Positions 1 through 50,984 of a DNA stretch of 64,000 nucleotides are shown here, piece by piece. Under the pieces are notes generated by a model that saw only the letters and a list, made by a program, of their open reading frames with translations, was not told the DNA's origin and did no database searches. The position numbers and the translations under genes are program-made. Numbering within the stretch: the stretch's first letter is position 1; each line of letters starts with the position of its first letter. Source of the DNA: Rhizophagus irregularis (lineage: Eukaryota); the NCBI RefSeq assembly GCF_026210795.1, contig NC_089432.1, forward strand, positions 4,278,001-4,342,000, given 5' to 3'.

Positions 1-1071
1 TTTTAACATACTCATCAGGAGTATCAGTAACAATAGTTTCTCTAAGACCTTGTGAAATTTCCAAAGCTAAACCAATATCATATTGTTTACCTTCAACATA
101 AAAAGGAGGTTGTCCACTAGAAATCTCCCATAATAATACGCCTAAACTGTAAATATCACTTTTTTCATTTAATGAGTATACTTGTGTTGATTGGTTGTTA
201 TTCCTCAGTCTACTAAAACTTTTTGGATCAACATAAGGAACCACTTCAAATAATTTAGATTGAAAATTGGATGATGCTCCAATTCTTTTAGATAATCCAA
301 AATCTGCTAATTTGATTGTATCATCACGGACAAGTATATTACAGGAGCGCTATTTAAGAAACATGTATATTCAAATAAGTAATACAAATATATTCATATT
401 AATGGTCAAATAATATTAAGTGAATTACCAGATCATTATGCAATATTCCTTCGTTATATAAGCATGATACAGCACAAGATAACTGGTATGCTATATTATA
501 TTTGTCATTCCAAGTAAGCTTGTTAAAATTTTCCTTCAAATAATTTCTAAGGCTACCACCGTTGGCGTATTCCATTACTAACCAATAATCATTATGATTA
601 TCTAACGAATAAAATACTTATTAAGTTTATTAAGTCCAATTCTTTGAATTTTGCGATTTACAATAATATTATATTTATTAAGATAACTTTAATAATACCT
701 GACTCGAGTTTTGTTATTCCATAGCAACGAATAAAGTTATCATGAAAATTAACTTCATGTTGAATTTTTAACTAAATAATATTTTTTAAATTAGTATATT
801 AGACAAAATCATAGACGAAAAAAATTATTTCATATTAAATTACCTCACGAACGATTTCTTTCACAGTGATTTTATTAAGACTAAAAAAAGATTTTAACGC
901 AAATTGCTCTCCTGAATTTTTCCAATTTGCATGATATACGTTTCCAAATTCTCCAGTACCAATATGTTGAATATTATTAAATTGTTTGTATTCATATGAC
1001 TTAAAATGCTCTTTATCCACAACTTCTTCAATCAAATTAACCCATTCATTTGTATGTTCGGTATCTTGCAT
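1..1071 (-). CDS. TKL-family protein kinase, 5' part (runs off window start); paralog of the kinase-Sel1 genes at 25587 and 38707
   Basis: ATG at 1071 (MQDTEHTNEWVNLIEE). Motifs across spliced exons: IGTGEFGNVY, FALK, YWLVMEYANGGSL, ILHNDL|RSCNIL, LADFG, SDIYSLGVLLWEISSG. Intron positions match the two paralogs. Confidence 0.85.
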
Positions 1072-1199
1072 TTTGATATTATTGGACGTTACTGAACGAA
1101 TTGAATAATGATAAGTTAACAGTAAAGTTAGAAAAAAATGAAAAGTAAAAATTATTAAAGTTTTATTTGTGTGCCTATTATATATATATTTTTTTTTCA

Positions 1200-1310
1200 A
1201 TGATAGTCGTACAAACGCACAGCGTGATTTAGTATTACCTGTTACAGCCAATCAACATGGTACCGCAGTTACCGCAGTAATTTCATTTACAAGTATAATG
1301 ACGTCATCAT
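1200..1310 (-). promoter_or_regulatory. Conserved upstream block of the kinase-Sel1 paralogs, with a CRE-like TGACGTCA palindrome
   Basis: TGACGTCA at 1299-1306 followed by GAAATTACTGCG and TGATTG. The same order occurs at 25350-25410 (+) and 38870-38928 (-). Confidence 0.5.
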
Positions 1311-2650
1311 GAAATTAAACCAGTAATCTTGGATATTGTTATTAAAATGGAATAGAAACTGAAAAAAATGAAATTAGAGCATTTGAATTATATAAAGAAG
1401 CAAGTAGTAATTAAAAAAACTTTTCTCTTACCAAATTCTCAATATCTAAAATTATATGGAAAATACATCAAAGTATATCAAAAAAAATATTTTTTTTCTT
1501 TCGAAATTGACCATCATATTAATCATACTCGATCATGATGTGGTAAGATCAATGCAAAAATAAGGAATGAAAGAATTAATTTAAATAATAATAAAAAAAA
1601 ATGAGAAGAAAAAAAAATTTTTTGACTCACATTTTAACCTGTAGAATCATCATCAAACAATGTCTTCTCAATATTGTAATAAACCCATACAAGAACAAGA
1701 AATTTGTAAAAAGAATTATTAAAATTTGGAAGCCTTTGCAACTGCAATCTCAACAATCTCTGTGGCGGTGACATATGGAAGTAGTCAAAGTCTCATATTA
1801 GTATATTTTTATGTAATCTTGCTTAACCGTATAAAAATATCAGAATTTTATTTTAATAATATGGCAGTACGTTATACATATAAAAGTTGTAAAAAAAAAA
1901 GCGGTATAGCAGATGAGTTGTGATACCACAAATGAGTTGCGGCAATGAAGTGACAATATCAAATCAATATCGTAAATACATCTTTTTTTATCCCTGAAAT
2001 TACCAATATCGTAACGATATCAAGACTATACTGATCAGATATTTTTTTTAATTAAATGTTGTCACAATATCTCAGCGATAAATTGTGGGATGAAGTGATG
2101 ATATCTTGCAAATATATCATCCTTTTTTTGAAATTTCCAACATCGTAATGATTATTAAGGCTGTGCCGATTTGATATTCTTTTGAATAAATATCATCATG
2201 ATATTTTCGCGATAAATTATGGAATTGATACCATTATGACATGAAATTTATATCATATCCATATCAATTCAACATCGCTCATATTTTCAAGTAAAGGAAG
2301 TGATAAAATTAAATAAATGATTGACAAATGATCAACAAAATTGTGATAAAGTAAAAATGAATGATAATCATTTCATCGGTGCTTAATAATTACTAAGATG
2401 AAATGATTAATCAGTTACTGCGATTTTTTAATAATTGATCTACATTCCAGTTTGTTTGTCATATATGCAATGATGCAATGCTTGTGAGTTGTGATCAACG
2501 CTTTTGCACATAATGTATTTTACATAAATATTATTACCATATTTATTCATACTAATAAAGGCGCTCAATAATAAAAAAAATAAGAAAAGAAATAAAAATA
2601 TTTACTTTATCTTTTTCAGTTGAGGAGAATTTGAGAATTTTGATATAGTA

Positions 2651-5611
2651 ATGGACCAATGTATTGAAGGTAGCTGAAATATTTTTTTATTTATAAACAA
2701 TTCATGTTTAATATCTTACATAATTCAACTAATTACATTCTTAATTTAAAAAACTAGATTGTAAGTAGTATATATAATTTACAGTAAATACTTTTATATT
2801 ATCTTTATATTTAACTAATTAATAATTAATAATACTACAGGGTGTAAGTTATATGATATCTATATTTGTATTATTTATATAATTTAAACTAACTAATTTC
2901 TTTATTTAAAAAATTATTTTGTAATTTATTTTAGTTGGTAAGCCATCATAGTAATTTATTTATTTAATTATATCATTACTTATTGTTATAATATTTATAT
3001 ATAATTTAAACTATATAATTTCTTTATTTAAAAAATTATTTTGTAGATGGTAAGTTATTTATTTAATTCTATTATTACTTATTGTTATAATATTTATATA
3101 TAATTTAAACTAGTATCTAATCTCTTTATTTAAAAAATTATTAAATAATATAGCGTGTAAGTTATTTATTTAATTCTATTATTACTTATTGTTATAATAT
3201 TTACATATAATTTAAACTATCTAATTTCTTTATTTATTTAATAGAACGTAAGTAATAAATTATTTGTTTAATTCTATTATTACTTATTATTATAATATTT
3301 ACATATAATTTAAACTGTCTAATTTTTTTATTTAGGGAGTAAGTTATTTATTTAATTCTATTATTACTCATTGTTATAATATTTACATATAATTTAAACT
3401 ATCTAATTTCTTTATTTAAAAAATTATTAAATAATATAGTTCGTAAGTTATTTATTTAATTCTATTATTACTTATTGTTATAATATTTACATATGATTTA
3501 AACTATCTAATTTCTTTATTTAAAAAATTATTTCGTAGAAGGTAAGTTATTTATTTAATTCTATTATTACTTAATGTTATAATATTTACATATGATTTAA
3601 ACTATCTAATTTCTCTATTTAAAAAGTTATTAAATAATATAGTGTGTAAGTTATTTATTTAATTCTATTATTACTTAATGTTATAATATTTACATATGAT
3701 TTAAACTATCTAATTTCTTTATTTAGGGAGTAAGTTATTTATTTAATTCTATTATTACTTATTGTTATAATATTTACATATAATTTAAACTATCTAATTT
3801 CTTTATTTAGGGAGTAAGTTATTTATTTAATTCTATTATTACTTATTGTTATAATATTTACATATAATTTAAACTATCTAATTTCTTTATTTAGGGAGTA
3901 AGTTATTTATTTAATTCTATTATTACTTATTGTTATAATATTTACATATAATTTAAACTATCTAATTTCTTTATTTAAAAAATTATTTCGTAGATGGTAA
4001 GTTATTTATTTAATCCTATTATTACTTATTGTTATAATATTTACATATAATTTAAACTATCTTTAAAAAATTATTAAGATCTAGCTTGTAAGTATCTCTA
4101 TTGTTATATATTTATATAATATTTATTTGTTAATTGAATTCTTTTATTTAAAAAATTCTGTTACTTTAGTTGGTAAGTTGTAAATTATAGGTTATTATGT
4201 ATTTATCCAAAAACTAAGACTTATATTACATTAAATTCCTATTTAAATTTTAGAGTAAGTAATAATTTATTTTAGTGTAAATTATAATACAATCTATAAT
4301 ATAATTTTAATTATTTAAATTTATAGATTTGGGGGAAGTGGAAACACAATTATAGATGATTTTATTCTTGAAAAAAAATTAAGATGGATTCCTTATAACA
4401 AATTTAAAAATGTTGAATATCTTAATGAAGGAGGATTTGGTACTATATACAAAGCTATTTGGTTAAAGAATTATGGAGGTGAAGAAGAAGTAATTCTTAA
4501 ATGTCACAAGAATTTAAATGAAAATTTAAATGAATTTTTGAAAGAAGTATGATAGATTGATAGTATATTATTTTTTATTTTTATAATTTATATTAATAAA
4601 TTATTATTAATTTTTGTAGTGGGACTATCATAAGAATTGTTTAAATTCATCATATGAAATTGTAAATTTTTATGGATTTACAAAAGATCCAAAGATTTCA
4701 AAATATATAGTAGTAATGGCTTATGCAAATAATGGTAATTTAAGAGAAAATTTAACAAGAATAGTCAAAAATAATTGGAATCAAAAATTATATATGTTGT
4801 ACAGAATTATTGCTGGACTTAGTAAGATACATGAAAAAAATCTTATTCATTGTGATTTTCATGATGGTAATATTTTAAATCATAATGAGAGTGTACTTTA
4901 TATTAGTGATTTAGGATTATGTCAACCTGTAAAATCGGTTTTGGAAAAGTATGATATTTATGGTGTTATACCATTTATGGCTCCTGAAGTTTTAAGAGGT
5001 AAATCTTATACTCCAGCTAGTGATATATATAGTTTTTCTATGATTATGTGGGAACTTACATCTGGAGTACCACCATTTAATAATAGAGCACATGACATTC
5101 AACTAAGTTTAAGTATTTGTAAAGATGGTGAACGTCCTGAAATTATTGAAAATGCTCCACAATGTTATGTAGATTTAATGAAAAGATGTTGGAATGAAGA
5201 TCCATTAAAAAGACCATCTTCTAAAGAAGTATTAGAAATTATTAATAAATGGATTTTCCGTTCTAATGAAGTCAATGATGAATTAAAAAGCAACATTATG
5301 GAATTTATAAATGCACCAATTAGGCAGTATAACAATCTTGTTACTCAACCTCATCCTAAAGCATGTTATACAAGTCGCTTACTTAATTTTACTAGTAAAA
5401 AATTGAATGAAATTATTGAAAGTGAAGATTCACAAGCTAATGTAGAAGCAAATGAAATACTAGTAAGTGAAAATTTGAATGATTATATAATTAAGGATTT
5501 GGGGTCATTAGGTATGTATTATGATATATAAAAAATTAATCTTGCAAATTATTTATGTGAAATTAATTTTATTTAATATTTAATTTAGATATTAAAACAG
5601 ATGAAAATTAA
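2651..5611 (+). CDS. TKL-family protein kinase with a micro-exon-encoded N-terminus
   Basis: Predicted exons: 2651-2669 (MDQCIE), 16 three-nt exons and a one-nt exon (2758-4254), 4327-4546 (FGGSGNTIIDDFI..WIPY..EGGFGTIYKA..VILK), 4620-5511 (HCDFHDGNIL, SDLG, APE, SDIYSFSMIMWE), and 5589-5611 ending in TAA. The kinase core has no stops. Confidence 0.8.
2670..4326 (+). repeat. Tandem array of intron plus micro-exon units (18 introns, 72-109 nt)
   Basis: Unit consensus GTAAGTTATTTATTTAATTCTATTATTACTTATTGTTATAATATTTACATATAATTTAAACTATCTAATTTCTTTATT(..)TAG. Sixteen junctions read AG-NNN-GTAAG and one reads AG-A-GTAAG. The core copies at 3050-4084 are nearly identical. Confidence 0.9.
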
Positions 5612-7215
5612 CTAGTAGTCATTGTTTGTTTTTAAAAAAAAATTATATATTTTTTTTTAAGCGATATTTGATATTATACATTTAAAAGAAATTGTTCTTT
5701 ATTTTATTCTTTTTAAATTTATTTAAATGCTAAGACTAGAGTCTAGTAAAATATTTTACAAAATTCTTAGTTTGTAATTTAAATAATTCCTTTTTTTTTC
5801 TACTTATAATTATTTAAACACTAAGACTAGAGTGGTAAATATTTTACAAGTTTCTTAGTTTGTAATTTAAATAAATCTTTTTTTTATAACTTTTCCAATT
5901 ATTGAGATATAAATTATCAAAATAATAATATAAACCCATTTCCAATGATAATGTATAGGCCAATAGCCTAACACTAGCCATTTTCTGTTTGATCACATGT
6001 TTGTACATAGCTCTGCATTAGTGTTTCGATACGTTTCTGGGTTCAAGTCTAGGGTGTCCAGGATTTGACGTCGTGATGGCCCAAAAATCAGGCGTGAAAA
6101 ATCACAAAAATCGTGAAAATCGTGATCCATAATTTCAGCCAGAATTACCATAATTCTGGCCAGAATTAACATAATTCCGATTATAAAAAACTTTTTAATA
6201 ATTTGATATTCTATACAAATTTTATTTATTTATTTACAATTAAGTAATAAATTTATACATTTATATTATTCATAAATCATCAATTCATTACTATAATCAT
6301 CATTATTACTAAGATTAAAATAAAGAAAATTAAGCATTTGAATATTTTCTTCTTTAAGCGCTACTCTTCTATCTGATAAAATGCTTTTATAACTAGAAAA
6401 ACTACGTTCAATATCTACACCAGATACTGGCAACCATATATATATTAAAGCCAGTGAACTAAGTTCTGGTAATATATGTCTTTTACCTCGCCAATACAAA
6501 TCCAAATCATCAAACTCTTCAATAGATTCATTAAGTCCACAGTAAATAGCCCATTCTTGTATTAAAGTATCAGTAGGAACATCAGCAAGTTTTAAACAGG
6601 CGTATAAAGTGTTGAAAAATGCCATGTGTTGCTCAACGCCAAAAAATGTAGGGAAACGAACCCTTTGTCAATCAACGCCACCTAAAAACGTTGAAAAACG
6701 CGTAAAACAACACCAATTTAAATGTAAAACAACATACAGTAAAACAACGATAGTTTAAAAACGTGTATACAATGTATAAAAACGCGTATATTGATATTAA
6801 AAATGCGTAAAGCAATGATTTTATTGTATATTATTAATATATATATTATATAAAATATGTAAATTTATTTATGATAAAATACGTATCAATTCAAATACAT
6901 TATCTAATGTAAATTCCTCTTGTTATAATTGGATTGCCGCAGATTTTTAAGCGATCAACGTACTAAATTTCCGTTGACATAGCGCCCCTGGTGACACAAC
7001 CATAACAAGGTGGGAATGTGATTTGTACAACTAAATCACTTGATTGATCTTTCTACAAACTGAAACGCGATAATTATATTAATATTATTAACTGAATGAT
7101 ATTGCTAAATTGCAATTGATACATAATATAATGCATACTAGAATAATACATATAGATTAGAAGACAAAAAATGACAACAACGAATAATATCAAATTATAA
7201 AAGTCACGTGAACTT

Positions 7216-9472
7216 TTATTGCTCTTCTTCTAAATCAGCAACTTCTAAATCAGCTGCTTGATTATCGTCCGTCGTATGCTCATCATAAACATCATCAACA
7301 CGATTATCAACTCCAATGATTTCATCATCATCGTCAATAGGTGTTATAGGTGTTTTGGGCGAAGACTCACATTCACATTCTTCAGAATCCTAAATAAAGA
7401 AATACAATATTACTAGTAATTTAATTTAAAACATTACATACAATTCAGTTGAGTACTTACCACGTCTGTATCTGTTATATTTCCGGTCCATGAATCGACA
7501 ATGTCTGCATCGATTTTTGACGAAAGGTGTTCCTCGTCAAATATAACTTCTAATACCGACTGAACCCAAATGGCATTTTCATTTGTACGCTCTTTATCAG
7601 ATGCAAAAACCGATTTAATTATTAACGAAATATAAGTATCAGACGACGGATCATCTGAGTCGCTCGGTTTGTATAAATCTTCATGGACCTGTTGAACGTT
7701 TTTACTTGCTTTCCATGTTCGCATCTGTTGTTTGCTGAAATTATCTTTGAATGGCGTTATTCTATTAATACCGAAAGTACACCACAAACTTTCTTTCAAT
7801 TTTCTAATGTAGTAACCTTTTTTAACGCGATTTGCAGCAAGTAACTATATTTAATAAAATAAACAAGTTGTTATAAATTTGGCAATTAATGACTAATATA
7901 TAATACAAATACTACTTACTTGTGAATGCATTCTATCATCCCACAAATAATCGAACGAAACTCCTTTTCCGGACAACTTCATGAGTATTTTGGCGGATGT
8001 TTCATCATTTTCTAATTTTTCTTTAAGGCGATTTTTCATTTGTCAGTCGGTTACTCGTCGATGCTCATGAAATAATTCATAAGAAAGATCTTTAATCGCA
8101 TCCTTAATACATACAAATTGTTATATTTAGTAAATAATATAAAGAAATACATAACTTTAAACCATATATTTACGTGATAAAATTCATCTGAGTTTTTGTC
8201 TTTCTTTTTCGTTTTACCCTTTTTTTTAACCTCGACTTCAGTTTCAACGTTGCGATGAGAATCTAATACCGACATTATATTTGAAATCTGGTCTTTTTGT
8301 TCGTTTAACATAGCTTCAAACCTTTCTTGATTATTAATAATCGTGTTGAGTTTTGATGCTGTTTTTTGATTAATTTGTATTAATTTGGCAAATTCACCAG
8401 AACTAACTGCTATAAATTATCGTTAATAAGAATAATAAGAACCAATTTGATAATTTATTAACAAAACAACAATGAACAAACAGTATATATCGTATCTAAC
8501 CTTGATCCGTTACTTTAGATGATGATGTTGTCGCATTATTATTTGATGGCGATTCTTTACTAATCACTGCCTTAACGCTGGATGATGATGATTTACTAGA
8601 ACCGGATGCTGCTTTACCACCAGATGCTGCTTTACCAGACGCTGCTTTACCACCAGATGCTGCTTTACCAGACGCTGCTTTACCACCAGATGCTGCTTTA
8701 CCAGACGCTGCTTTACCAGACGCTGCTTTACCACCAGATGCTGCTTTATCAGACGCTGCTTTACCACCAGATGCTGCTTTATCAGATGCTGCTTTACCAC
8801 CAGATGCTGCTTTATCAGATATCGTTATTTTAATAGAGGAAGGAGAAGAGAAGGAAGGAGGAGAAATTACCACCGAAGGGATATAAGAGGATATTGTTGA
8901 TGATTCATTTATTGCCTGATGAAAACAATAAAATGTATTTAATAAACTAATAATGTATAATATAAACAATAACAAAATTGATAACTGATATTACTTGAGA
9001 AGATCTTTTGGTAGTTTTATTGGTACCGATAATAATCTCATCAATATCTCTATCACGAAACAAATCTAACCTTGCAATTTTCGTCTTTTTTGGAGTCTCT
9101 ATTTGTGAAGCGTCTGAAATTGTTTGATGATTGGCTTCGGTATCTGTTAATTATAATGTATTTTTAGATATTCGTTCACACAAGTTCAAAAAAAAACTAA
9201 AATAAAACCTTTCAAATTATTTTGTTCGTTGATCTAAAAGATATTAATTATATAAGTATATTTATACAATCATAATAATTTACAACCAAATATATATAAT
9301 AATTTAAAGTTAAAATAATTACTTCTATATTCATACTCGTTGACGATCTAGTAGATCTAGTAGACCTAGTACTAGATCTAGTAGTAGGTTTTGGGCGTTT
9401 TAAATTATTAAAATCTAAAGAGCGTTTGCCGCTGGTTTTATTATTATTATTTTTGTTGTCGTCATTATCCAT
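7216..9472 (-). pseudogene. Accessory multi-exon gene of the Plavaka element (Ser/Lys/Ala/Gly low-complexity region, acidic C-terminus)
   Basis: ATG at 9472 (MDNDDNK). The ORF pieces at 9248, 8496, 8051 and 7434 join at GT-AG sites and end at TAA 7216-7218. One in-frame TGA at 8043-8045. No domain recognised. Confidence 0.6.
8604..8820 (-). repeat. Coding minisatellite of 15- and 18-bp units (ASGKA/ASDKA/ASGGKA)
   Basis: Repeated GATGCTGCTTTACCACCA and GACGCTGCTTTACCA on the + strand. Confidence 0.9.
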
Positions 9473-24596: not shown

Positions 24597-25586
24597 GCTA
24601 TGCAAGGATTTTTAGTGATTACCAAGATTTAAACTTTCAACAAAAGGTAAGACTTTTTATGACCGTCACGCGCCAAGCCCATTTATTATATCAGAAGCAT
24701 GTATCACACATCAAAAAGAACTTTTTAGACAAATCCAATGTTTCACTCTGAAGAAAATCTCATGCAGTCCTTTAGAAAAAAAAACTATTCCATTCAATGC
24801 CATCCATTCTAACGAGTTATTTAACAAATGGAACAAATCAACAAAATTATTACCTCGTTATAATATGGAATAAGTTACGATGTCACCTATAAAGCCAATT
24901 GTCATAGAACACTCATTACATGCCCTAAAAGTTCGAAAAATTTTCAAATTTCAAAATTAATTGATTTTTGAGTTAAAGAAATGTGAAGGGTATTTCAAGC
25001 CACAAAAACCAAATCAAATTACTGAATTGAAGAGTCAATTTTTAGCCGCTAAATGCAAAACTTATATATTTTATGAGTTGCTATCTTTTCTTTATCTATA
25101 TTCCATTTCAAATTCAACACTTACACCATCAGAGTATAATTTTTACGTCCCTTATTTTTTTTTGCTAACAACACACGTAACCAAATACTAGAAAGGTCGA
25201 TCTTAAGCAAATCGATCGTATATACTTTCAACCATAAATTTGTCCACTTTGCCCTTAACACCCAAACCTATTATCAAATACATTATTCCTACTCCAACAT
25301 TAATAATATTCATACAATTTATAGTAAATTTTTTTTTCAAATTTCATTATGACGTTATTATATGAATGAAATTACTGCGTATTGCGGTACAAACATCGAC
25401 TGATTGACTTTTTGTTTGGTAACAGGGTAATACAGGTAGTACCAAATCACTCTAATCACTCCTGTACGCTTGTACAACTATCATCGGAGAAAAAAAAATT
25501 ATAAATAGGCAAACAATAAAACTTTCAACAATTTTTTTTTAAATTTTACTGTTAACTTATTAATCAATACATCCTATATTTTCAAA

Positions 25587-27866
25587 ATGCAAGATACCGA
25601 GAATACAAATGAATGGGTTAATTGGATTGAGGAAGTTGTTGATAAAGAATATTTTAAATTTTATGAATACAAACAATTTAATAATATTCAATATATTGGT
25701 ACCGGAGGTTTTGGAAAAGTATATCGTGCAAATTATAAAAATTCAGGAAAACTATTTGCGTTAAAATCTTTTTTAAATCTTAATAACATCACAGTGAAAG
25801 AGATTGTTCGTGAGGTAATTTAATATAAAATACATTCTTTTTCGTTTATGATTTTGTTATAATATAACATTTTAAAAAATTTGAATTTTATTTTAGTTAA
25901 AAATTCAACGTGAAGTTGATTTTCATGATAAAATTATTCGTTGCTACAGAATGACAAAACTTGAGTCAGGTATCATTAAGTTACCTTAATAAATAGTATA
26001 ATATTCTTTTAATCGCAAAATCGCCAAATATATTTTATTAATTATTCCTTTTAATCATTAGAAGATTATAATAATTATTGGGTAGTAATGGAATACGCCG
26101 ATGGTGGTAGTCTTCGAAACTATTTAAAGAAAAACTTTAAAAAGCTTACTTGGGACGACAAATATAGTATGGCATACCAGTTATCTTGTGCCATATTATG
26201 TTTACATAACGAAGGAATAGTGCATCGTGATTAGTATTATTTGTCCGTTTAATAATAATATTATGCTTGTATTACCTACTTATTTGAATTTATATATGTT
26301 TCTTTAATAGCACTCCTGTAATATACTAGTCTGTAATAACACAATCAAGTTAGCAGATTTTGGATTACCAAAAAGAATTGGAGCATCCAATTTTCAATCT
26401 AAATTATTTGGGATGGTCCCTTATGTCGACCCAAAAAGCTTTAGTGGACAAAGTAATAATAATAACCAATCCACACAATTGTACTTATTAAATGAAAATA
26501 GTGATATTTACAGTGTTGGAGTATTATTATGGGAGATATCTAGCGGACAACCTCCTTTTTATGTTGAAGGTGAACAATATGAAATTGGCTTAGCTTTAGA
26601 AATTTCACAAGGTCTTAGAGAAACTGTTGTTCCTAATACTCCTGAAGAATATGTAAAAATATATACTAGTGAGTAAAATTTTAGATTTTATATTTTTATA
26701 ATTTGAATATTATTTTAACTAGTTTTGAATTACATTTATTTCTAGAATGTTGGGATGGAGAACCAGATAATCGTCCAAAAATATATCAAGTTGTTGATTG
26801 GCTAAATGCAATAATTACAAAATCAGATGTAATCATAGAAAACCAACAAATTTCAAATGAACGAGAACTTAATGAGGCTTCTATAAGTAATAATGATTCA
26901 GTATTACAAGTAGAATTATCTCAACTTATTCAAAATTTTGATAAAATAAATATAAAAGAAATTGATCCTATGATAATATTAAGTAAACAAAAAAATTTTC
27001 TAATTGAAGATTTTAACATTATAATTGATGTAATAAATGATTTTATTATTAAATTAAATAATAAAGGGCTAGAATGGAAAGCAGAAAAGCAGAAAACTAT
27101 TGAATATTTTAATAATCATAATTTAGATTCACAAGAAATTTATAATTGGTTGTTAGACAATCAAAATAGTTTAAATCCTATTTTTATTCTTGGATATTTT
27201 AATTATTATGGAATTGTAACAAGTGAAGATAATGAGAAAGCATTTAATTTGTTCATTAATGCGTCAGAAAAAAATCATATATTAGCACAATACTTTGTTG
27301 GTGAATGTTATTTTTATGGAAATGGGACTATAAAAAATGAAAAATTAGCTTACAAATACTATAAGAAAGTAGCTAATAAAAATTTATCAAGTGGACAATT
27401 AAATATTGGTTGTTGTTATGATTATGGAATGGGTATTAAAAAAGATTTAAAAGAGGCATTTTATTGGTATGAAAAAGCTGCAAATAATGGAAATATAACG
27501 GCAATGTACAATCTCGGCCTTAATTATAAAGACGAAAAAGGCGTTAAAAAAGATTATGATAAAGCTTTTGAGTTATTTAAACAATCAGCTAAAGGAGGGT
27601 ATTTGGGTGGAATAATGATGTTAGGATATTGTTATAATAAGGGTATTGGAACTAAAATTGATAAGCAAAAAGCATTTGAATTTTATCAAAATGCTGCAAA
27701 TTTAGGACATAATGGTGCACAAAATAATCTTGCTATAATGTTTCAATTAGGAGATGGGATTGCAAAAGATATAGATAAAGCGATTTATTGGTATAAAAAG
27801 TCTGCTGAACAAGGATATGAATTAGCAAACAATAATTTAATAAAGCTTCAGAATAGTTTATTTTAA
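25587..27866 (+). pseudogene. TKL kinase plus Sel1-repeat protein, probably inactivated
   Basis: GTGGFGKVY, FALK, DFG, and Sel1 repeats (YWYEKAA, AQNNLA). At the catalytic-loop exon end it reads CAT CGT GAT TAG (26232-26234), where the paralogs have HxDL|gt, giving a stop or frameshift. Confidence 0.8.
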
Positions 27867-31725: not shown

Positions 31726-33334
31726 CCGGGCGTAGTTGCTTCTGATATTGCTAGTTAAACATAAGTAGTATTTGACATTAATGGATTTGGATGTGTATCA
31801 TCTTGAAGTTTGTTTCTTGAACCATTTTCGTTTGAATGATTTTCATTTTTTGATGATTTTACTTCCATTTTTAAATATTCAATGTAACTGACTTTACCTT
31901 TTTCAATGAATTCAATTAAACTAAAAAAAAGTAATTACACCTTTTCAAGTTTTTAATCTTTTCATCCTTTTTGTCTAATTCCTTTTCCAGCTTTCTATTT
32001 TCATGAAACCTTTTATAATAAAAAAAAGTGTAAAATAAAAATCCATTATCCAATTATAAAAAATAACACAAATTATTTTTTTGAGAATGAGTTTTTGAGT
32101 CGCTATAATATCATTTTTTATTTCGAGGTAAAATTTTTTTAACCATGATTTTTAGGTGTAAAATGAAAAATATCTAGTTTGAGGAATAACTTGTCAACAA
32201 AACTTTTATCCCTGATTATATTAAAAGAAATTAAATGTTTTACATTAAAATAAAATTAATAAGTTGTAAAGAGAATTCAAGTATTATTAAAAGAAAATCA
32301 GGATGGTAGTCAACTTTACAGTATAGTCTAACATAAATTGTCTTATAACATGTAACAGTTGTAACACCTCTTTTATAAGATTGTGTAAAAGATGTAATTT
32401 AACTTATTAAAATTCTGAAATGATATTGGTTAGTGATTTTGACGGACTGATATACAGTCTAATTATACCTTTTATGTCAAATATTTTTTTTTTACTGATT
32501 TTATTGATGCGCGGTTTAAATTGTTATATAGTAACAAAATAATATGTAACGCGTCTCCACAAGTGATGACTCATAATTAATAAAGATTGAAGTTTAACTA
32601 CTTTAACTTATTAAAATATTGGTTGGTGATTTATATACAGTTTAATTATACCTTTTATGTGCAGTATAAACAATAGACTATTTTTTACTATTTTTCCATT
32701 TTTGCAAGTCCGCAAGAGTTGATTACAATATTAGTATAATTTATACTTTTTATATGAAAAGCTTGTGCAACAAAAAAAAATATTTATATAGTCCTTTTTT
32801 CTTTTTTTTTTATTACACATCCTCTTATTCCAAACATCCTTCTATTCCACACATACACATCCACTTATTTTTTTCCTCCTTTAGAGAAAGGTAACAAACT
32901 TTTTTCGCGCAAATAAATATTTTTGTTTTTTTTTTACGCGAAAAAAATAATATTCTTCCTTTCTATTATTCTTGAGAAAGGTAACAAACTTTTTTTTGCG
33001 CAAATAAATATTCTTATTTTTTTATTGCGCAAAGAAATAAATATTCTTTCCGCAAATATTTTTATTTTCATATATGTATTTTTTTTATCCATTTAAATAA
33101 ATATTTTTTTTTTTTACACAAATAATTATCTAGGGTATACCATTTATTCCAAGATCAGGACAACAAATGTTGAACAATAAATAAGTATTACTCCTAATAT
33201 GATCAACACAGAGATAAAGTCTAGAAAGGTGAGAAACGTTAGACTAGACTAACCTACTCAAGAAGTCAACCAAAGGATAACATCTCCAAATCATTGTCAT
33301 CAAGACCCAGGTTCTATAACAAAATCAACTGGAA

Positions 33335-34468
33335 TTTATTTATCACATTTAGTACATTTGGTGAGTTATTGTGTTTAAATTTAAAAAGTTTGGGCTTTAA
33401 TTGCAATGAAGGCTTTTTTACGATTTAGTTCATGGGTCTGCTCACGTATGTATATGTCTAAGGTTTTCCAAACTTGCTTAGGCTTATTTGTCGGGATTCT
33501 TTGTGAGTCTAGATGAAATCTGGTATATGTGCCTGAGTAAGCGTGAATGAGCATTCTGATATCAGCCTAGTAATTCAATAACTCATTTATCCGAGTGATC
33601 ATAGGATAACCTTTCTCTTTAATCTAGATTATTATTTTCCTTGCGCAAGAAATCGGATTTAATTTAATTTATCACATGTGGTACATTTGGTGAGTTGTTG
33701 TGTTTAAATTTAAAAAGTTTGGGCTTTAATTGCAATGAAGGCTTTTTTACGATTTAGTTCATGGGTCTGCTCACGTATGTATATGTCTAAGGTTTTCCAA
33801 ACTTGCTTATGCTTATTTGTCGGGATTCTTTGTGAGTCTAGATGAAATCTGGTATATGTGCCTGAGTAAGCGTGAATGAGCGTTCTGATATCAGCCTAGT
33901 AATTTAATAACTCATTTATCCGAGTGATCATAGGATAACCTTTCTCTTTAATCTAGATTATTATTCTCCTTGCGCAAGAAATCGGATTTAATTTAATTTA
34001 TCACATGTGGTACATTTGGTGAGTTGTTGTGTTTAAATTTAAAAAATTTGGGCTTTAATTGCAATGAAGGCTTTTTTACGATTCAGTTCATGGGTCTGCT
34101 CACGTATGTATATGTCTAAGGTTTTCCAAATTTGCTTATGCTTATTTGTCGGGATTCTTTGTGAGTCTAGATGAAATCTGGTATATGTGCCTGAGTAAGC
34201 GTGGATGAGCGTTCTGATATCAGCCTAGTAATTCAACAACTCATTTATCTGAGTGATCATAGGATAACCTTTCTCTTTATTTCTAGGTTATTATCATCAA
34301 GATCCAGGTTTTCTGTATTTATCAATTCTATTGATATATTTTTCTAATATTAATTTTATTATCAAGACCAAGGTCTCCTTACACAAGAAATCCATAACAA
34401 AATCAACGAATTTATTTATCACATTTGGTACATTTGGTGAGTTATTTTGTTTAAATTTAAAAAGTTTG
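33335..34468. repeat. 329-bp tandem repeat, about 3 copies plus a partial fourth start
   Basis: The anchor CATTTGGTGAGTT has its GG at 33360, 33689, 34018 and 34436. The copies are nearly identical. Confidence 0.95.
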
Positions 34469-36396: not shown

Positions 36397-38707
36397 TTAT
36401 AATTCAATGATTGAAGGAAAATTATCATGAATTACTATTTGATTATTTTGAAGTGATTTATATTTATCTTGTGCATCTAGATCTCCTTGTTTGGCAGATT
36501 TTTCATACCAATAAATTGCTTTACCTATATCTTTTGTAATTCCATTTCCTTCTTCATACATTAAAGCAAGATTATATTGTGCTATAACATCCCCTAAATT
36601 TGCAGCACTATGATATAATTCAAATGCTTTTTTCTTATCAATTTTAGTACCAATACCATTACTATAACAATATCCTAACATAATTATTCCATCTGAATAT
36701 CCTCCTTCAGCTGATTTATTATATAAATCAAAAGCTTTATTAAAATTTTTTTCAACAACAATTCCATTTTCATAAAATCTACTAAGATTATATATAGCTA
36801 TAATATTATCATTATTTGCAGCTTTTTCATACCAATAAAAAGCTTTTTGATAATCTATATCAACTCCTATTCCTTTTTCATAAAAATAACCCATTTCTAA
36901 TTGCCCACTTGAAAAATTTTCATTAGCCACTTTTTCATAATATTCAAATGCTAATTTTTCATTTTTTATAGTTCCATATCCATAACTATAACAATAACCA
37001 ACAAAAAGATGTGCTATTATATGATTTCTTTGTGATGCATTAATAAACAAGTTAAATGCTTTCTCATTATTTTCACTTGTTACAATTCCATAATAATTAA
37101 AATACCCAAGAATAAAAATAGAATTTGAACTATTTTGATTATCTAATAACCAACTATAAATTTCTTGAGAATTTATATTATAATTATTAAAATATTCAAT
37201 AACTTGTTGTTTTGCTTTAAGTCCTTTATTTTTTAATATAAAAATAAAATCATCTATTTCATCAATTATAATGTTAAAATCTTCAATTGGAAAATTTTCT
37301 TCTTTACTTAGTATTAAAATAGGATCAATTTCTTTTATATTTAATTTATCAAAATTTTGAATAGGTTGAAATAAATCTACTTGTAAATTTGAATTATTAG
37401 TACTTAAAGAAGCCTCATTAATTTCTTGTTCATTTAGTATTTGATCATTTTCTACTATTACATCTGTTTTTGTCATTATGGCATTAAGCCAATCAACCAC
37501 TTGATATATTGTTGGTCGATTATCAGGCTCATCATCCCAACATTCTAAAGAACCATATATAATTAAAGATTAATAAAAATAGTATTTAATTTAAGAATTT
37601 TAAATTTAAAATATTACTTACTGGTATAGATTTTGATATATTTTTCAGGAGTACCAGGAACAATAGTTTCTCTAAGACCTTGTGAAATTTCCAAAGCGAA
37701 ATCAATATCAAATTGTTTATCTTCATCATAAAAAGGAGGTCGCCCACTAGATATCTCCCATAATAATACGCCTAAACTATAAATATCACTTTTTTCATTC
37801 AATGAGCATATTTGTGTTGATTGATTGTTATTATTTCTTTGTCCACTAAAGCTTTTTGGATCAATATAAGGAACCATCCCAAATAATTTAGATTGAAAAT
37901 TGGATGATTCACCAATTCTTTTTGATAATCCGAAATCCGCTAATTTGATTGCATTATTATGGATCAATATATTATAGGAGTGCTATTAAAGAAACATATG
38001 TATATTCAAATGAGTAATACAGGTATAATATTATTATTAATCAAATAATGTTAAATTAATTACCAAATCACGATGCACAATTCCCGTGTTATGTAAGTGC
38101 GATACAGCACTAGATAACTGATATGCCAAATTATACTTGTCATCCCACGTAAGCCTATTAAAATTTTCTTTCAAATAACTTCGAAGAGTACCACTATTAG
38201 CATATTCCATTACTAGCTGGTAATTATTATGATTTTCTAATTAATAAAAAAAAAATAATTAATAAAATGAACTTTGTGAAATTTTTCAATCAAAAGAATA
38301 GTTATATTTATTAAGGTGACTTTTATAAATACCTGACTCAAGTTTTGTTATTCCATAGCAACGAATAATATTATCATGAAAATCAACTTCGTGTTGAATT
38401 TTTAACTGAATAAAATATAAAAATATTTGAAATAAATATATTAGATAAAATTTATAGACGAAAAAAAATGTATTATACATTAAAATACCTCACGAACGAT
38501 TTCTTTCATGGTGATATTATCAAGACTAAAAAAAGATTTTAACGCAAATTGCTTTTCTGAATTTTTCCAATTTGCACGAAATACTTTTCCGTAACCTCCA
38601 GTACCAATATGTTGAATATTATCAAATTCTTTATATTCATATGATTTAAAATATTCTTTATCCACTGATTCCTCAATCCAATTAACCCATTCATTTGTAT
38701 CTTGCAT
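36397..38707 (-). CDS. TKL kinase plus Sel1-repeat protein, apparently intact, 5 exons
   Basis: GTGGYGKVF, FALK, GIVHRDL|HSYNIL, LADFG, SDIYSLGVLLWE, CWD, and multiple Sel1 repeats. Canonical GT-AG introns. Confidence 0.9.
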
Positions 38708-39923
38708 ATTGATATTATTGAATGTATTGAATAATGTTAACAGTAAAGTTTAAAAAAATGGAAAGTAAAAAAAATCGGTAAAGTTTAACTTGTACGCCTA
38801 TTTTATATATTTTTTCTCCGATGTTAGTCGTACAGGCATTTAGTACTACCTCAAAACAAACAAAAAAGTCAATCAGCCATGGTACGCAGCACGCAGTAAT
38901 TTCATGCACAGTATATTTCATGACGTCATCATTAAAATTATCATCAAATGTCGTACTGTAAAAAGAATTTTTAAATTTCTTATGCAAGTCGGTTGGATCT
39001 TTGCAGGCGTCTTCTGTTAGTGAGATTCAACATTCAGTCTTGCTTGTACAGTAGATGTTTCAGTGCTATACCGTAGGATGAAGTACCAATTGGTTGCTAT
39101 CTATTCAAAAATTATGAGACGCGGATCAGTAATGCACATATCGGAAGAAAAAGATAAATAGAATCTCCGGCTATGAACAAATCTATACTAACATATTATT
39201 TGTCCCAATAATCGATAGAATAAATATAGTCGCAAAATCACTGTATATTTATATGAGGCATACAGTGTCAGAAATAACCCCGCCGAAAATTTATGTTGCT
39301 TGCATTCCGTGATGCTGTACGAAAAAAAAATGGACAATATCATTATTTTGATTGGCACTCTCATGTGACATTGTGACATGTGGCTGATTTTCGATTGATA
39401 AATTTTTTTTCGTAATTTCCTTGACACATCGCTGACTCAGTTCGTAGTATTACTGACTCACAGTTCGTAGTAATTAGTCAACAACTGTTTATGGAAACAT
39501 ATATATATGTGATAAATAATCAAAATGTCGAACTATTCTTCGCTATTTCGAGTACTTTCGCTTTAAAAATTTTCTTATTTGTTGAGATTCAAAAAAAGTG
39601 AAAAAGATAATCTATACAAATTCCATTTTTTTTCTTTTAATACCGACCGAGTCTATAATTGAAGAAAGGATGTATTCTCGGATAATTTTTGCTGCAAAAA
39701 TTTGATTAAATTAATTTACTTTTTTTATCATCTTATTTTAAGTTCATTAATATGAATAATTTCAATCGAATAGATGCATCCCAGGTACAAACTAAATTCG
39801 AGGAAAATTCCCTACCTGTTAGATCTAACGTTGTACCCATAAGGTCTTTTACTTGTGTTATACTGAAAAATTACTTTTTTGACCCTCGTTTTAATTCTCG
39901 ATTTTTGCGATTGCAGATATACC

Positions 39924-46250: not shown

Positions 46251-48707
46251 TAATTTTTTATAATTAATACCAGTAAATATAACTTTGTTTGGATCTCCAA
46301 AAAATTCCGACAAACCATAGTAATATCGACAGCCAACACCAAAATCCTAATAAATGCAAATTCCGATTGAATCAGACTGGGATGAGTTTGAGATTAGTTA
46401 ATTTTTTAATGCAATTGTTTCTAATTTCTGATCTGGTAATATACTGTACGTAGTCCTTTTAATTAAAATAAAAATTTTTTCTTTTATTTTTATTAATAAA
46501 TATAGTAATGTTAGTAAATTTGCATTAATTAAATTAATTAATACTAATCAAATAATTCAAAATAATATTGGATAATTAAGACACGTTACTACGCCGCTGC
46601 ATTTTTAAAATTAAGTGATTAATTGGAAATTTATAAAATATATACAATTTTTTTTTTTAAAAAAAAAAACTTTGGGATTTTGACTATCAAGAAATTTAAC
46701 TGTCAGGATTTGTGACTATCAGGATTTTGTTTCAACTAGAATTTGGACTTATCGTGATTTTTTGTGTCAACGTAGACTGTCGATATTATGGTTATGGCAA
46801 TCCCGTGCCATATTATATAAGATTTGCAACCAAAAAGAAAAATTATTAAAATTACTTGCAAGGACACATTCCAAATTTCCTCGGTTTGTCAATTGCATAA
46901 TTAATCATCATAAATTCTTTAATTAGTTATTCAATAGAATTTTAAATAAGCAATACTATCATTAAAATAAATATTTCAAACCATTTTAATTTATAAAAGC
47001 TTAAGTCATTAAGTTGTAGTAATAAATCTTTTTATTTTCAACAAATAAGAGTAAATATTCCTATCATTATAAATTGTATTCTCAATAAATTCATCAAAAT
47101 CATTATTCCAACTGGTTTATCCTTCAAGACCTTAATGTGTAAGGTGGATCGGACTAACATTATGAATATGTCAAATTTGTAAGAAAGGAGTTTCATGTTT
47201 GTTTAGTTTTAATTAGCGTGCTTATTAATATATATTGATTATTCGTTGATTTAATGAAAGATCAATGAGAATAAAAAAGGAAAATCAATTTTCTATATCA
47301 CAAACATTTTAAACAAGACTTTTTTAAGTTAAATAATTATTATATAGATATTAGCTTTTTTTTTGTGGCAAAATTTGCAAAAATTTGTTAAAAAGTTGGC
47401 TCTACGTGTCTGTTAAACTTAGGATAGCATATAAAATCCTAATAAAGATGCATTACAGTTTTTTTTAAAAAAAAAAAAAAAAAAAAAAATTTGTTAAAAA
47501 AAAATTTTCAAGTATTGATAAACTCATAATATAATGAAAGAGAAAATATATTTATGTAGGGAACCATGTGATTGGACGATCTACATCATGTTAAACGGTC
47601 AGTTTATTGCGCCATTCATTAAAAAAAGAGTTAAAATGAAGTAATTTTTTAAGATTAAAAAATTTTGATAATCGCAATTTGTATTAGGATCAACAACTTT
47701 TATAGTGTTAGCGATAGTTTTACATAATCTCATAAAGAAAAACGTAAGAAAAAAAATATAATAAAAAAATTAATGGAAAAAATTAGCAAAATAAAAAAAT
47801 AAATTGAAGAAACAGAAATAGTAAATAATAATTATTGTACTAATAAATTTTATAACGTTAAAATTGAGTTTTCTTATAGCAAACTTTTAAAAAAAAAAGT
47901 TTTTTAAATATTAAGAATAATAAGAATTATTTTTAATGCTTAAATTCTTATAGGCATTAAAATGAGTATATCTTATTAATTGACCAATAAAATTAATAAT
48001 ATAAACGTATATAAAAGCGGACGTGACGCACATGTCGTATATAGACGCTTCCCTTCAATAAATACCCGATATATCATAATGTTTTAAATGGAAAACTTAT
48101 AAATTATAGAAGATTTTTTCATATCAGAGGAGCAATTTATTATAAGTTAAACTTTTTATAAAAGTTAAACATTCGACTTTTGATTATTTTTAGATAGTCA
48201 TTAGTCATCCTTAACAAAGAAATATTATGAATATTTTTTATATTACAATTTTAACATATATAATGTTATTTTATTCTTCTATCAATCCTATGTAAAATCC
48301 AAATTTATAATTAAATTTGTCTAATGTATACTTAATAGTTACACTATTTACGATCATCGTTATTTGTTAAATGATCTTGAGTCTTTAGACAAATAATATT
48401 TTTTTTTTTGTTTTTTTTTTGAAATCCTTTAAATAAATGGTAAAGTTGGATTAATTAATTAAAATCAAAAATCAAAGTTTAAATAAAAAATTATCGTACT
48501 TTTTGTCAAAGTCAAAATTAAATTTTTTGATGCATTGGAAAAAAATTTTTCCCTAACAATGCAAATCATTTGACTAGACTAATTAGGGTTGAGTACAGGA
48601 GTACATACGCAGTCATTGTTACACATGGTTGACTTTATAAGTAGACCGTTCCGAATTTTTTTTTAAAAATTTAAAATTTAAAAAAATTTACAATAAAATA
48701 TTTCATT

Positions 48708-50984
48708 ATGTCTGTTATTAGAGAAGATTTAATTTATACTACACTTAATAAAGCATATGCACTAACGGATTATAATATTCACAATGATATGTACAAAAAA
48801 ACTGAATTTCGAAAAAAAACAATTCTTGCTGATGAATCACTTACAAAAGATGAAAAATCTGAAGCAATAAGAATTTTGACTGCAACTTATGATAAATATA
48901 AAATTATTTATAATTCAGGAACAAGAAGAGTTTGTGAAAATTGTAACCAAAAATGTTTAGCTACATTATATTGTGAATATTGTGTTCGAAATTATTTAAA
49001 AAATAATTTTTCAAATTGGACATCCGGAAATGATGATATTGATAATTTAATACAAAAATGTCAGATGAGTACATTTGACCCGAATGTCATAGTTGAATGG
49101 ATTCCATATAATAATTTAAAAAATATTAAATATTTAACAAAAGGTGGATATTCTGAAATTTATACAGCAGAATGGATTGATGGTCATTTTATTGAATGGG
49201 ATTCTAATCAACAACAATTAAAAAGATTTGGAGAGCAGTATGTAGTACTTAAAAGATTAGAAAATGTTGAAAGTGCAAATAAAAGTTGGTTTGAAGAGGT
49301 TTGTAGTCTAAAAATGGTAGTAATTTTTCATTTAAAATTTTTTATAATATATTCTTTATTTTATAGGCTAATTCGCATTTAAATATATGTAATAAATGGT
49401 CAGATGCGATTGTCCAATGTTTTGGTTTAACAAAAGATCCATTAAATGGAGTTTATATGCTTGTAATGAATCAATTTGATATAGATTTAAGAAACTATTT
49501 ACAACAAAATCATAGTCAACTTACATGGAAAGAAAGAATTCAAATTGCTGTTGTCATAATTAATGCACTTTCACGGGTTCATGAAGAGAATGCGATTCAT
49601 AGAGATTTGCATTCTGGAAACATACTATTTAAAACTAAATTTAATATTAGTGATCTTGGATTTTGTGGACCTGCAGATAAACCATTAAAGAGTGTATATG
49701 GAAATCTTCCTTACATTGCACCAGAAGTTATTGCAGGAAAAGTAACTACTTTTAAATCTGATATTTATAGTATTGGCATACTTATGTGGGAAATTTCATC
49801 TGGACAACCACCATTTATTAATTACGAACATAATTATGATCTTGCTATGTATATTATTAATGGTATAAGACCAAAAATTGTATCAGGAACTCCTTTAGAA
49901 TATAAAAATTTAATGAAACAATGTTGGGATGCTGATCCATCAAAAAGACCTGATATTAATACACTTGATAATAAAATAAGAGAAATTAATTTATTTTATC
50001 AAACTAAATCAAATGAATCATTAACTCAACCAGAAGAAAATAATAATTCTGAAATGGAAAATCATACTAGCAGTAGCAAAGTATTTACAAGTATCAGTAA
50101 ACTTCATCAATTTGATAATCTTCCTAAACCAAGAAATGCAACAGAAGGTATTATTGAAATTTGTTATTTGATTTTTAATATATGGTTGATATTAATAATT
50201 AAAATCTTACCTTTTTAATTAAATAATAATGCAGAAGAACAAGAAGGTATAAATTAAACATTATAATTTTATATATATTTTTTATTTTAAAATAATTAAA
50301 TAATAAATTATTTTTCTTTTATTAGCATTTCACAGTAATAAATCATACAACTTTCATATTCCCAATAACAGTATGTATATTAGATTTATGTTAATATAAT
50401 AAGATACTTTATTTGATTTATTTTTATCTATCATTAGTTGATGATTTTGATAAGTTGAATAATCAGAAGAATAGTTCAAAAATAATTGGCATTTTTAAAG
50501 GTAATTATAAAACATATTTAATAGTATTTCCTTTAGATGATCAAATAAATTAATATTAATATTTTAAACTTTTTAGCTAGTACTGAAGAATCATTAAAAG
50601 GGAATTCAAAAAATGGCAAGTAGAATGATTAATATTATCAATTTAATTGTTTGATATTGAACATAACATTATTTTAATTTTTAGTTATTCAAGAAACAAT
50701 GCAACAACAAATAAAAAAATATCATGATGATATTGACGGTATAATATAATTATTTAAACTGATTATAATAATTATGATAATAATTAATTTAATACTTTCT
50801 AAATAATTATTTTATTTGTAGATGATGAAATTCATAATAATCCAAATCTTCACTCGGAAGAACAAGACGAATTGGAACTTCCGGATAGTAAGGATTCTTT
50901 ATTTTTAAATTTGAAATTTTTAATTAATTTAAAAAATCACTACTAAAGTCTTTTTTTAATAATTTTTTAGATATAGATAATTAA
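48708..50984 (+). CDS. TKL kinase with an N-terminal CxxC-CxxC region and a multi-exon acidic tail
   Basis: Exons 48708-49298, 49367-50147, 50235-50246, 50326-50370, 50438-50500, 50577-50615 (GC donor), 50685-50738, 50822-50887, 50971-50984. Motifs WTSGN..ID, KGGYSEIY, VVLK, HRDLHSGN, SDLG, APE. Confidence 0.9.

Follow-up and report, generated by a model that had tools for sequence, protein, structure and literature searches.

Layout of the array and its host kinase gene

The window, a 64-kb stretch of the Rhizophagus irregularis genome, contains a kinase gene in which a run of sixteen 3-nt exons and a single one-base exon lies between the start codon and the exons that encode the kinase domain (Table 1). 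An earlier note on this DNA had listed sixteen micro-exon triplets, and we find that all sixteen, with their coordinates, are correct, that the junctions read AG-NNN-GTAAG, and that the introns preceding the triplets are 80–109 nt long. The pattern YAGNNNGTAAG has 16 matches in the window, all on the plus strand from 2755 to 4177 and none on the minus strand, compared to a mean of 1.63 and a maximum of 5 in 100 dinucleotide shuffles of the 64 kb. Most spacers had been said to carry a branch motif; indeed, CTRAY is found within 50 nt of the acceptor in 13 of the 16 introns preceding triplets. The centre of the array is a tandem repeat with an 84-bp period and 99% matches, and these central units are a recent tandem duplication. 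The outer units have diverged, yet they retain their splice signals, and the signals are perfect in all 16 units.

Table 1. Exons and introns of the array-bearing kinase gene (positions in the window)
Feature	Position	Strand	Remarks
Exon 1: 5' UTR and start codon at 2651	2575..2669	+	19 coding nt, ends in phase 1; read coverage stops exactly after 2669; 5' end approximate
Array region: 18 introns of 72–109 nt and 17 micro-exons	2670..4326	+	first donor GTAGCT, others GTAAG; acceptors TAG or CAG
Micro-exon 1, ATT	2758..2760	+	motif; follows exon 1 directly in both consensus rows of family RNA
Micro-exon 2, GGT	2841..2843	+	motif; comes second in both consensus rows of family RNA
Micro-exon 3, TTG	2935..2937	+	motif
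Micro-exon 4, ATG	3047..3049	+	motif; upstream intron without CTRAY
Micro-exon 5, CGT	3154..3156	+	final T opens a stop codon when exon 6 comes next
Micro-exon 6, AAC	3245..3247	+	completes TAA behind any exon with a final T
Micro-exon 7, GGA	3336..3338	+	motif
Micro-exon 8, TTC	3440..3442	+	motif
Micro-exon 9, AAG	3539..3541	+	motif
Micro-exon 10, TGT	3643..3645	+	motif
Micro-exon 11, GGA	3727..3729	+	motif; 84-bp unit
Micro-exon 12, GGA	3811..3813	+	motif; 84-bp unit
Micro-exon 13, GGA	3895..3897	+	motif; 84-bp unit
Micro-exon 14, ATG	3994..3996	+	motif; two of five consensus rows of family RNA have ATG at this rank
Micro-exon 15, CTT	4085..4087	+	motif; in 5 of 5 family RNA consensus rows
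Micro-exon 16, TTG	4170..4172	+	motif; in 5 of 5 family RNA consensus rows
One-base exon, A	4254	+	TAG acceptor, GTAAGT donor; frame needs A; in 5 of 5 family RNA consensus rows
Kinase exon, encoding a short helix at its N-terminus, the glycine-rich loop and the catalytic lysine	4327..4546	+	
Ordinary intron, 73 nt	4547..4619	+	GT..AG joint in 60 reads from three runs
Kinase core exon (PF07714) and C-terminal tail	4620..5511	+	
Last coding exon with stop	5589..5611	+	matches the C-terminus of P0121 and P0122; family reads use acceptor 5589

The host gene is, judging by its sequence, a tyrosine-kinase-like (TKL) kinase of the expanded R. irregularis PF07714 family. Its last long exon is 100% identical to P0001 (GBC22470.2, Rhizophagus irregularis DAOM 197198), its kinase domain scores 121 bits with PF07714 (cut-off 23), and the solved relatives nearest by sequence are EGFR, CTR1, MLTK/ZAK, TAK1 and RIPK1. 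The glycine loop, the beta-3 lysine, the catalytic aspartate, DxG and APE can all be recognised in P0001 and its alignment to EGFR. The array was proposed to sit between an ATG exon and an intact kinase domain, and this is the arrangement we find; ATG is absent from 2541 to 2650, the sequence upstream of the start codon. The array contributes at most 17 of about 400 residues, and exon 1 supplies six codons. In the AlphaFold model of P0001 (mean pLDDT 62), the N-terminus of which is intron-derived, a helix at 40–48 lies ahead of the N-lobe.

The array had been called invisible to ORF calling, and the public models of the gene do lack it; they start within an intron or take an unrelated upstream exon. 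The spliced array peptide is found in none of 120 homologs (the best of 1,498 matches) and in none of 76 further homologs among the matches listed with the first kinase exon as query, which are short proteins from transcript assemblies. Ahead of the shared first kinase exon, the N-termini of the listed homologs are partial, intron-started or mutually unrelated, and several annotated paralogs (P0046, P0047 and P0051) have an acidic repeat segment there. The public models have wrong N-termini for at least one whole kinase subfamily, and the missing part is the most variable one of the transcript. According to the available portions of PMC6123716, expanded R. irregularis genes carry PF07714 more often than any other motif, and the gene models were built with AUGUSTUS and TopHat hints; micro-exons are not mentioned in those portions, and the available portions of PMC8778642 hold nothing on exons.

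Elsewhere in the window, a further PF07714 kinase gene (48675–50218, plus strand) has no array; its N-terminal region is helical, and a four-cysteine motif stands where the array would be. Kinase and Sel1-repeat genes of another subfamily lie at 835–1251 (minus strand), 25509–27866 (plus strand) and 36397–39026 (minus strand), with no triplet arrays on either strand. We also noted a 15-bp coding-like repeat at 8601–8820, which is open on both strands and rich in Ala, Ser, Gly and Lys on the minus strand, and a 329-bp unit present three times, with 97% matches, at 33333–34294.

Reading frame and family transcripts

Exon 1 ends in phase 1, and the kinase exon at 4327 requires entry in phase 2. 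No number of triplets can make up this difference, so the single A at 4254 is needed; without it, exon 1 and the kinase exon are out of frame for every subset of triplets. The one-base exon had been overlooked, as had the phase of the 3-nt exons. They stand in phase 1 and are thus not codons: each codon joins the final base of one exon to the two leading bases of its successor. Phase 2 for the triplets was considered and rejected, as it would make stops at 11 of 68 adjacent pairs.

When all 16 triplets of the window array are included, a TAA arises at the junction of exons 5 and 6, and full inclusion is closed. Dropping exon 5 alone or exon 6 alone opens the frame, and no other single-exon skip does so; the kinase is otherwise without a lesion over about 380 codons. 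The proposal that any subset of the triplets keeps the frame, for up to 2^16 variants, is therefore right about the frame but not about the variants, since only 32,376 of the 65,536 subsets enumerated for this array are stop-free, and these correspond to 15,154 distinct peptides. If triplets 1, 2, 14, 15 and 16 are held fixed, which are those seen at the ends of family transcripts (triplet 14 in two of five rows), 1,328 of 2,048 subsets are open and correspond to 631 peptides.

We aligned three polyA runs under the same species label and one contig set to positions 2300–5700. The runs come from two samples in a single study, and roughly a quarter of the reads in each was used. Both best-supported consensus rows of reads leaving exon 1 at 2669 continue ATTGGT, which is triplets 1 and 2 (41 and 58 reads, one sample), and all five best-supported rows of reads entering the kinase exon end CTTTTGA, which is triplets 15 and 16 and the one-base exon (54, 54, 86, 124 and 125 reads). 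These seven rows are the best-supported ones, and 628 further rows stand outside the count. By a hand count over the seven rows, 35 of the 42 middle triplets are among the 27 triplets of the genomic arrays. The second base of the middle RNA triplets is T in 33, G in 8, A in 1 and C in none, compared to T in 52, G in 21, A in 6 and C in 1 of the 80 triplets of the genomic arrays, and the phase-1 reading of the middle triplets in the seven rows gives no stop. The kinase family splices triplet exons and the one-base exon into mRNA, and the segment is very variable in the transcript pool. The view that the triplets are exons, and not just a repeat, is thus borne out by the first two triplets, the last two triplets and the one-base exon in spliced family reads.

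The agreement with the consensus is 0.59–0.67 ahead of 4327 versus 0.90–0.91 behind 4546, at the ordinary kinase intron. Two rows share triplets 6, 8, 9 and 10 in register, and in one run the agreement over the first 30 nt is 0.83. The end triplets look fixed in the family, and the agreement of 0.83 points to dominant forms rather than free shuffling.

Only 111 of 5,026 aligned reads are at least 99% alike to the window gene. Nearly all reads differ from it at 2623 and at 4334–4335, and their middle triplets are mostly absent from its array. The reads nearly all come from paralogs or another allele, and the variability of the pool could stem from paralogs alone. About 7–10 reads over the three runs carry the window gene's own letters at 4334–4335. 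The family reads have G at 2623, and we considered the TGA at 2621 of the window gene as a nonsense change; the reads place this position in the 5' UTR, ahead of the first ATG, and the candidate was rejected. The contig set behaved like DNA, with a summed depth (which is not equal to copy number) in several array bins that was 10–100 times that of the kinase exons, and it contains pieces with an ATC triplet between splice signals; together these observations suggest that there are many more arrays in the genome.

Related arrays and comparable systems

A pattern scan of metagenome contigs yielded at least 105 stretches, corresponding to 103 loci, and by design selects arrays and gives no frequency. 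Most of the 103 loci are simple repeats of one triplet. Ten loci have a GC below 0.27, and seven of these (L004, L009, L018, L045, L056, L063 and L065) have AT-rich introns and 3-nt exons similar to those of the window. In L004, L018 and L063, the array immediately precedes a kinase that matches P0001 with 46–54% identity over the main hit, and the array of L045 precedes a weak kinase match (E 2e-5, below the cut-off). From GC and kinase matches, we infer that the seven AT-rich loci belong to Glomeromycotina. In L004, L018 and L063, the array is joined to the kinase in phase 1, and the one-base exon is absent; the junction lies right behind the position of the last cysteine of the four-cysteine motif retained by the kinase at 48675–50218 of the window, so that the array peptide stands in the place of that motif.

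All exons can be included without a stop in L004 (18 exons) and in L063 (17 exons, 5' end missing), and thus no skipping is required there. In five of the eight arrays (L009, L018, L045, L063 and L065), no subset can make an internal stop. The residues W, D, R, F, I and N are abundant among the junction codons of the eight arrays, and binding surfaces often have such a composition. In L009 and L065, longer repeated acidic exons that end in phase 1 precede the arrays. L056 is a decaying array, with a 2-nt unit, units without splice signals and no kinase seen downstream.

We compared triplets with their introns in eight gap-free close unit pairs, seven from the window and one from L018. Differences are present at 8 of 24 exon sites, compared to 19 of 664 sites in the flanks. 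A minimum-change count gives 6 of 24 for the exons (p about 1e-4), and leaving out one change of CpG type lowers this to 5 of 24 (p about 1e-3), with p-values that are inflated, since the pairs were chosen by flank similarity and share ancestry. These counts hint that the triplets change faster than their introns. Exons starting with AA, AG or GA, which give a stop after T, make up 9 of 80 versus 24% in ordinary codons of the window, and a within-array permutation of such stop-prone starts gives a p of 0.11. Stops occur at 1 of 68 adjacent pairs versus 17 of 417 non-adjacent pairs, a difference too small to separate constitutive from alternative splicing.

Iotti et al. reportedly described, in 2012, codon-sized mini-exons in the nank NLR family of Tuber melanosporum. 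The precedent in Tuber, which the earlier note had mentioned, is indeed in the literature: the available portions of PMC4986451, PMC9815663 and PMC13449251 describe NACHT-ankyrin genes with tens of codon-sized, alternatively spliced mini-exons. The R. irregularis array shares with them a run of 3-bp exons (16 here, 18 in L004 and 17 in L063), an expanded fungal family and a variable segment, as well as the splicing of mini-exons into mRNA, which is seen here at the family level for the end triplets and the one-base exon in polyA reads. Unlike in Tuber, the host is a kinase (Pfam gives kinase families only, with no NACHT or ankyrin), and the array is N-terminal, from the start codon to the kinase exon, whereas that of Tuber is in the C-terminal recognition region. 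The array also belongs to Glomeromycotina, distant from Tuber, and has phase 1, junction-made codons and a one-base frame exon. In its workings it resembles the Tuber mini-exon system, to which it does not belong, being in another host protein, at another protein end and in another lineage. The scan did recover a fungal locus (L025, 1307–7061; also L026) that has Abhydrolase, NACHT, winged helix and ankyrin segments followed by at least 33 varied 3-nt exons with near-identical introns, at a GC of 0.50; it shows the Tuber nank-like build and is thus the pattern's positive control.

Two other systems are comparable in part. In the Schistosoma MEGs, which encode secreted proteins and have exons of 3–81 bp and introns up to 5 kb (available portions of PMC10526429), runs of very short exons likewise give variable proteins; unlike in these genes, the exons here are all 3 or 1 nt, the introns are 72–109 nt, and the array gives an intracellular kinase its N-terminal tip. 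In brown algal NB-ARC-TPR and ROCO-LRR receptors there is one repeat per exon, and alternative splicing has been proposed as a source of diversity (available portions of PMC13449251). The R. irregularis array has a similar modularity at the exon level, but each of its exons, rather than holding a whole repeat, is split over two codons, with two bases in the first and one in the second. We found no report of triplet-exon arrays in Glomeromycotina among the papers listed from a largely open-access literature.

Proposed use of the array and alternative explanations

The window copy encodes an intact kinase, yet full inclusion of its triplets is untranslatable, and it therefore likely skips some of the middle triplets. 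We give a somewhat better than even chance to an explanation that combines skipping of micro-exons with a recognition-type role of the N-terminal peptide. Units of 84–107 bp, each an intron and an exon, would be gained and lost through unequal crossing-over, the triplets would change fast, and fixed end exons would hold a variable middle. Because a codon is built from two neighbouring exons, one skip would remove one residue and could alter another. Forms that carry a stop would be lost, and the window copy would have to drop exon 5 or exon 6 for any kinase product. One kinase would come with a range of short, variable peptides at its N-terminus, none longer than 17 residues. The peptide would be placed just ahead of the short helix by the kinase N-lobe (in the model with a mean pLDDT of 62), where other members have the four-cysteine motif, and it would probably serve in partner recognition.

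Alternatively, the triplets might be included constitutively, with one form per gene. In that case, the diversity would reside in the DNA, through gain and loss of units and point change across paralogs, and the window copy would be a recent null allele with a stop at exons 5–6. The open full inclusion of L004 and L063, the stop at just 1 of 68 adjacent pairs, the fixed end triplets and the part of the middle that is in register in family RNA all agree with this account, as do the few reads with the window copy's letters (about 7–10), a number to be expected if its transcript is weak or decaying, or if the RNA is from another strain. Fast change of the triplets fits it equally well. We nevertheless regard constitutive inclusion as possible but doubtful, since there is no further lesion in about 380 kinase codons of the window copy, all 16 of its units have perfect splice signals, agreement is low in the middle of the transcript pool, and Tuber arrays of like build are reported to be alternatively spliced in the available portions of PMC4986451, PMC9815663 and PMC13449251.

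If triplets are skipped, the sequence of the peptide might still be irrelevant, with skipping being splicing noise or a dimmer that sets the amount of kinase through degraded stop-carrying products. Exons of three bases are hard to define and some skipping of them is expected as a matter of general knowledge; 35–51% of the possible subsets of the window array carry a stop. We consider noise or a dimmer improbable, because this is impossible in the five of eight arrays in which no subset has an internal stop, and because the triplets seem to change faster than neutral flanks. The idea that the whole array is one long intron, either a satellite with chance splice motifs or a series of recursive splice sites that leave no trace in mRNA, is more improbable still. 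That the array centre is a recent tandem repeat, and that most of the 103 metagenome loci found with the pattern are simple one-triplet repeats, would agree with a long intron, but a single intron from 2670 to 4326 throws the kinase out of frame, the diverged outer units keep their signals, and the triplets and one-base exon are present in family mRNA, which largely refutes this idea for the family. Recursive splice sites are zero-length ratchet points from which no exon bases are left in mRNA, and the family mRNA does contain the triplets.

If the skipping that we favor is true, the array would give a widespread plant symbiont a concrete means of diversifying its proteins, and there would be one more lineage with triplet-exon arrays on candidate recognition proteins. 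The one-base frame exon and the sixteen 3-base exons also provide a compact test case for how the spliceosome deals with exons too short to define. We advance only tentatively, as a rather unlikely extension, that a large branch of the AM-fungal kinase family might have a hypervariable tip built by splicing, with short aromatic- and aspartate-rich peptides put together from phase-1 triplets, new residues arising wherever two exons meet, and hundreds of sensor variants per gene in one mycelium that would recognise non-self, microbes or host plants; if so, a combinatorial receptor repertoire would be absent from all current gene models.

The narrower intron pattern gave 4 loci in prokaryote genomes and 1 in viral contigs, with just 2–3 identical triplets per locus. 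Pfam found no host gene at L036, L044, L072 and L076. On the minus strand of L076, at about 1500–3200, there are about 30 3-nt exons with short introns at a GC of 0.37, and L093, L072, L044 and L062 have runs of about 9–14 varied 3-nt exons each (GC 0.32–0.57). A small array of four 3-nt exons with introns of 35–44 nt is found in L001 (1152–1280), in an AT-rich gene that is ankyrin-like by eye.
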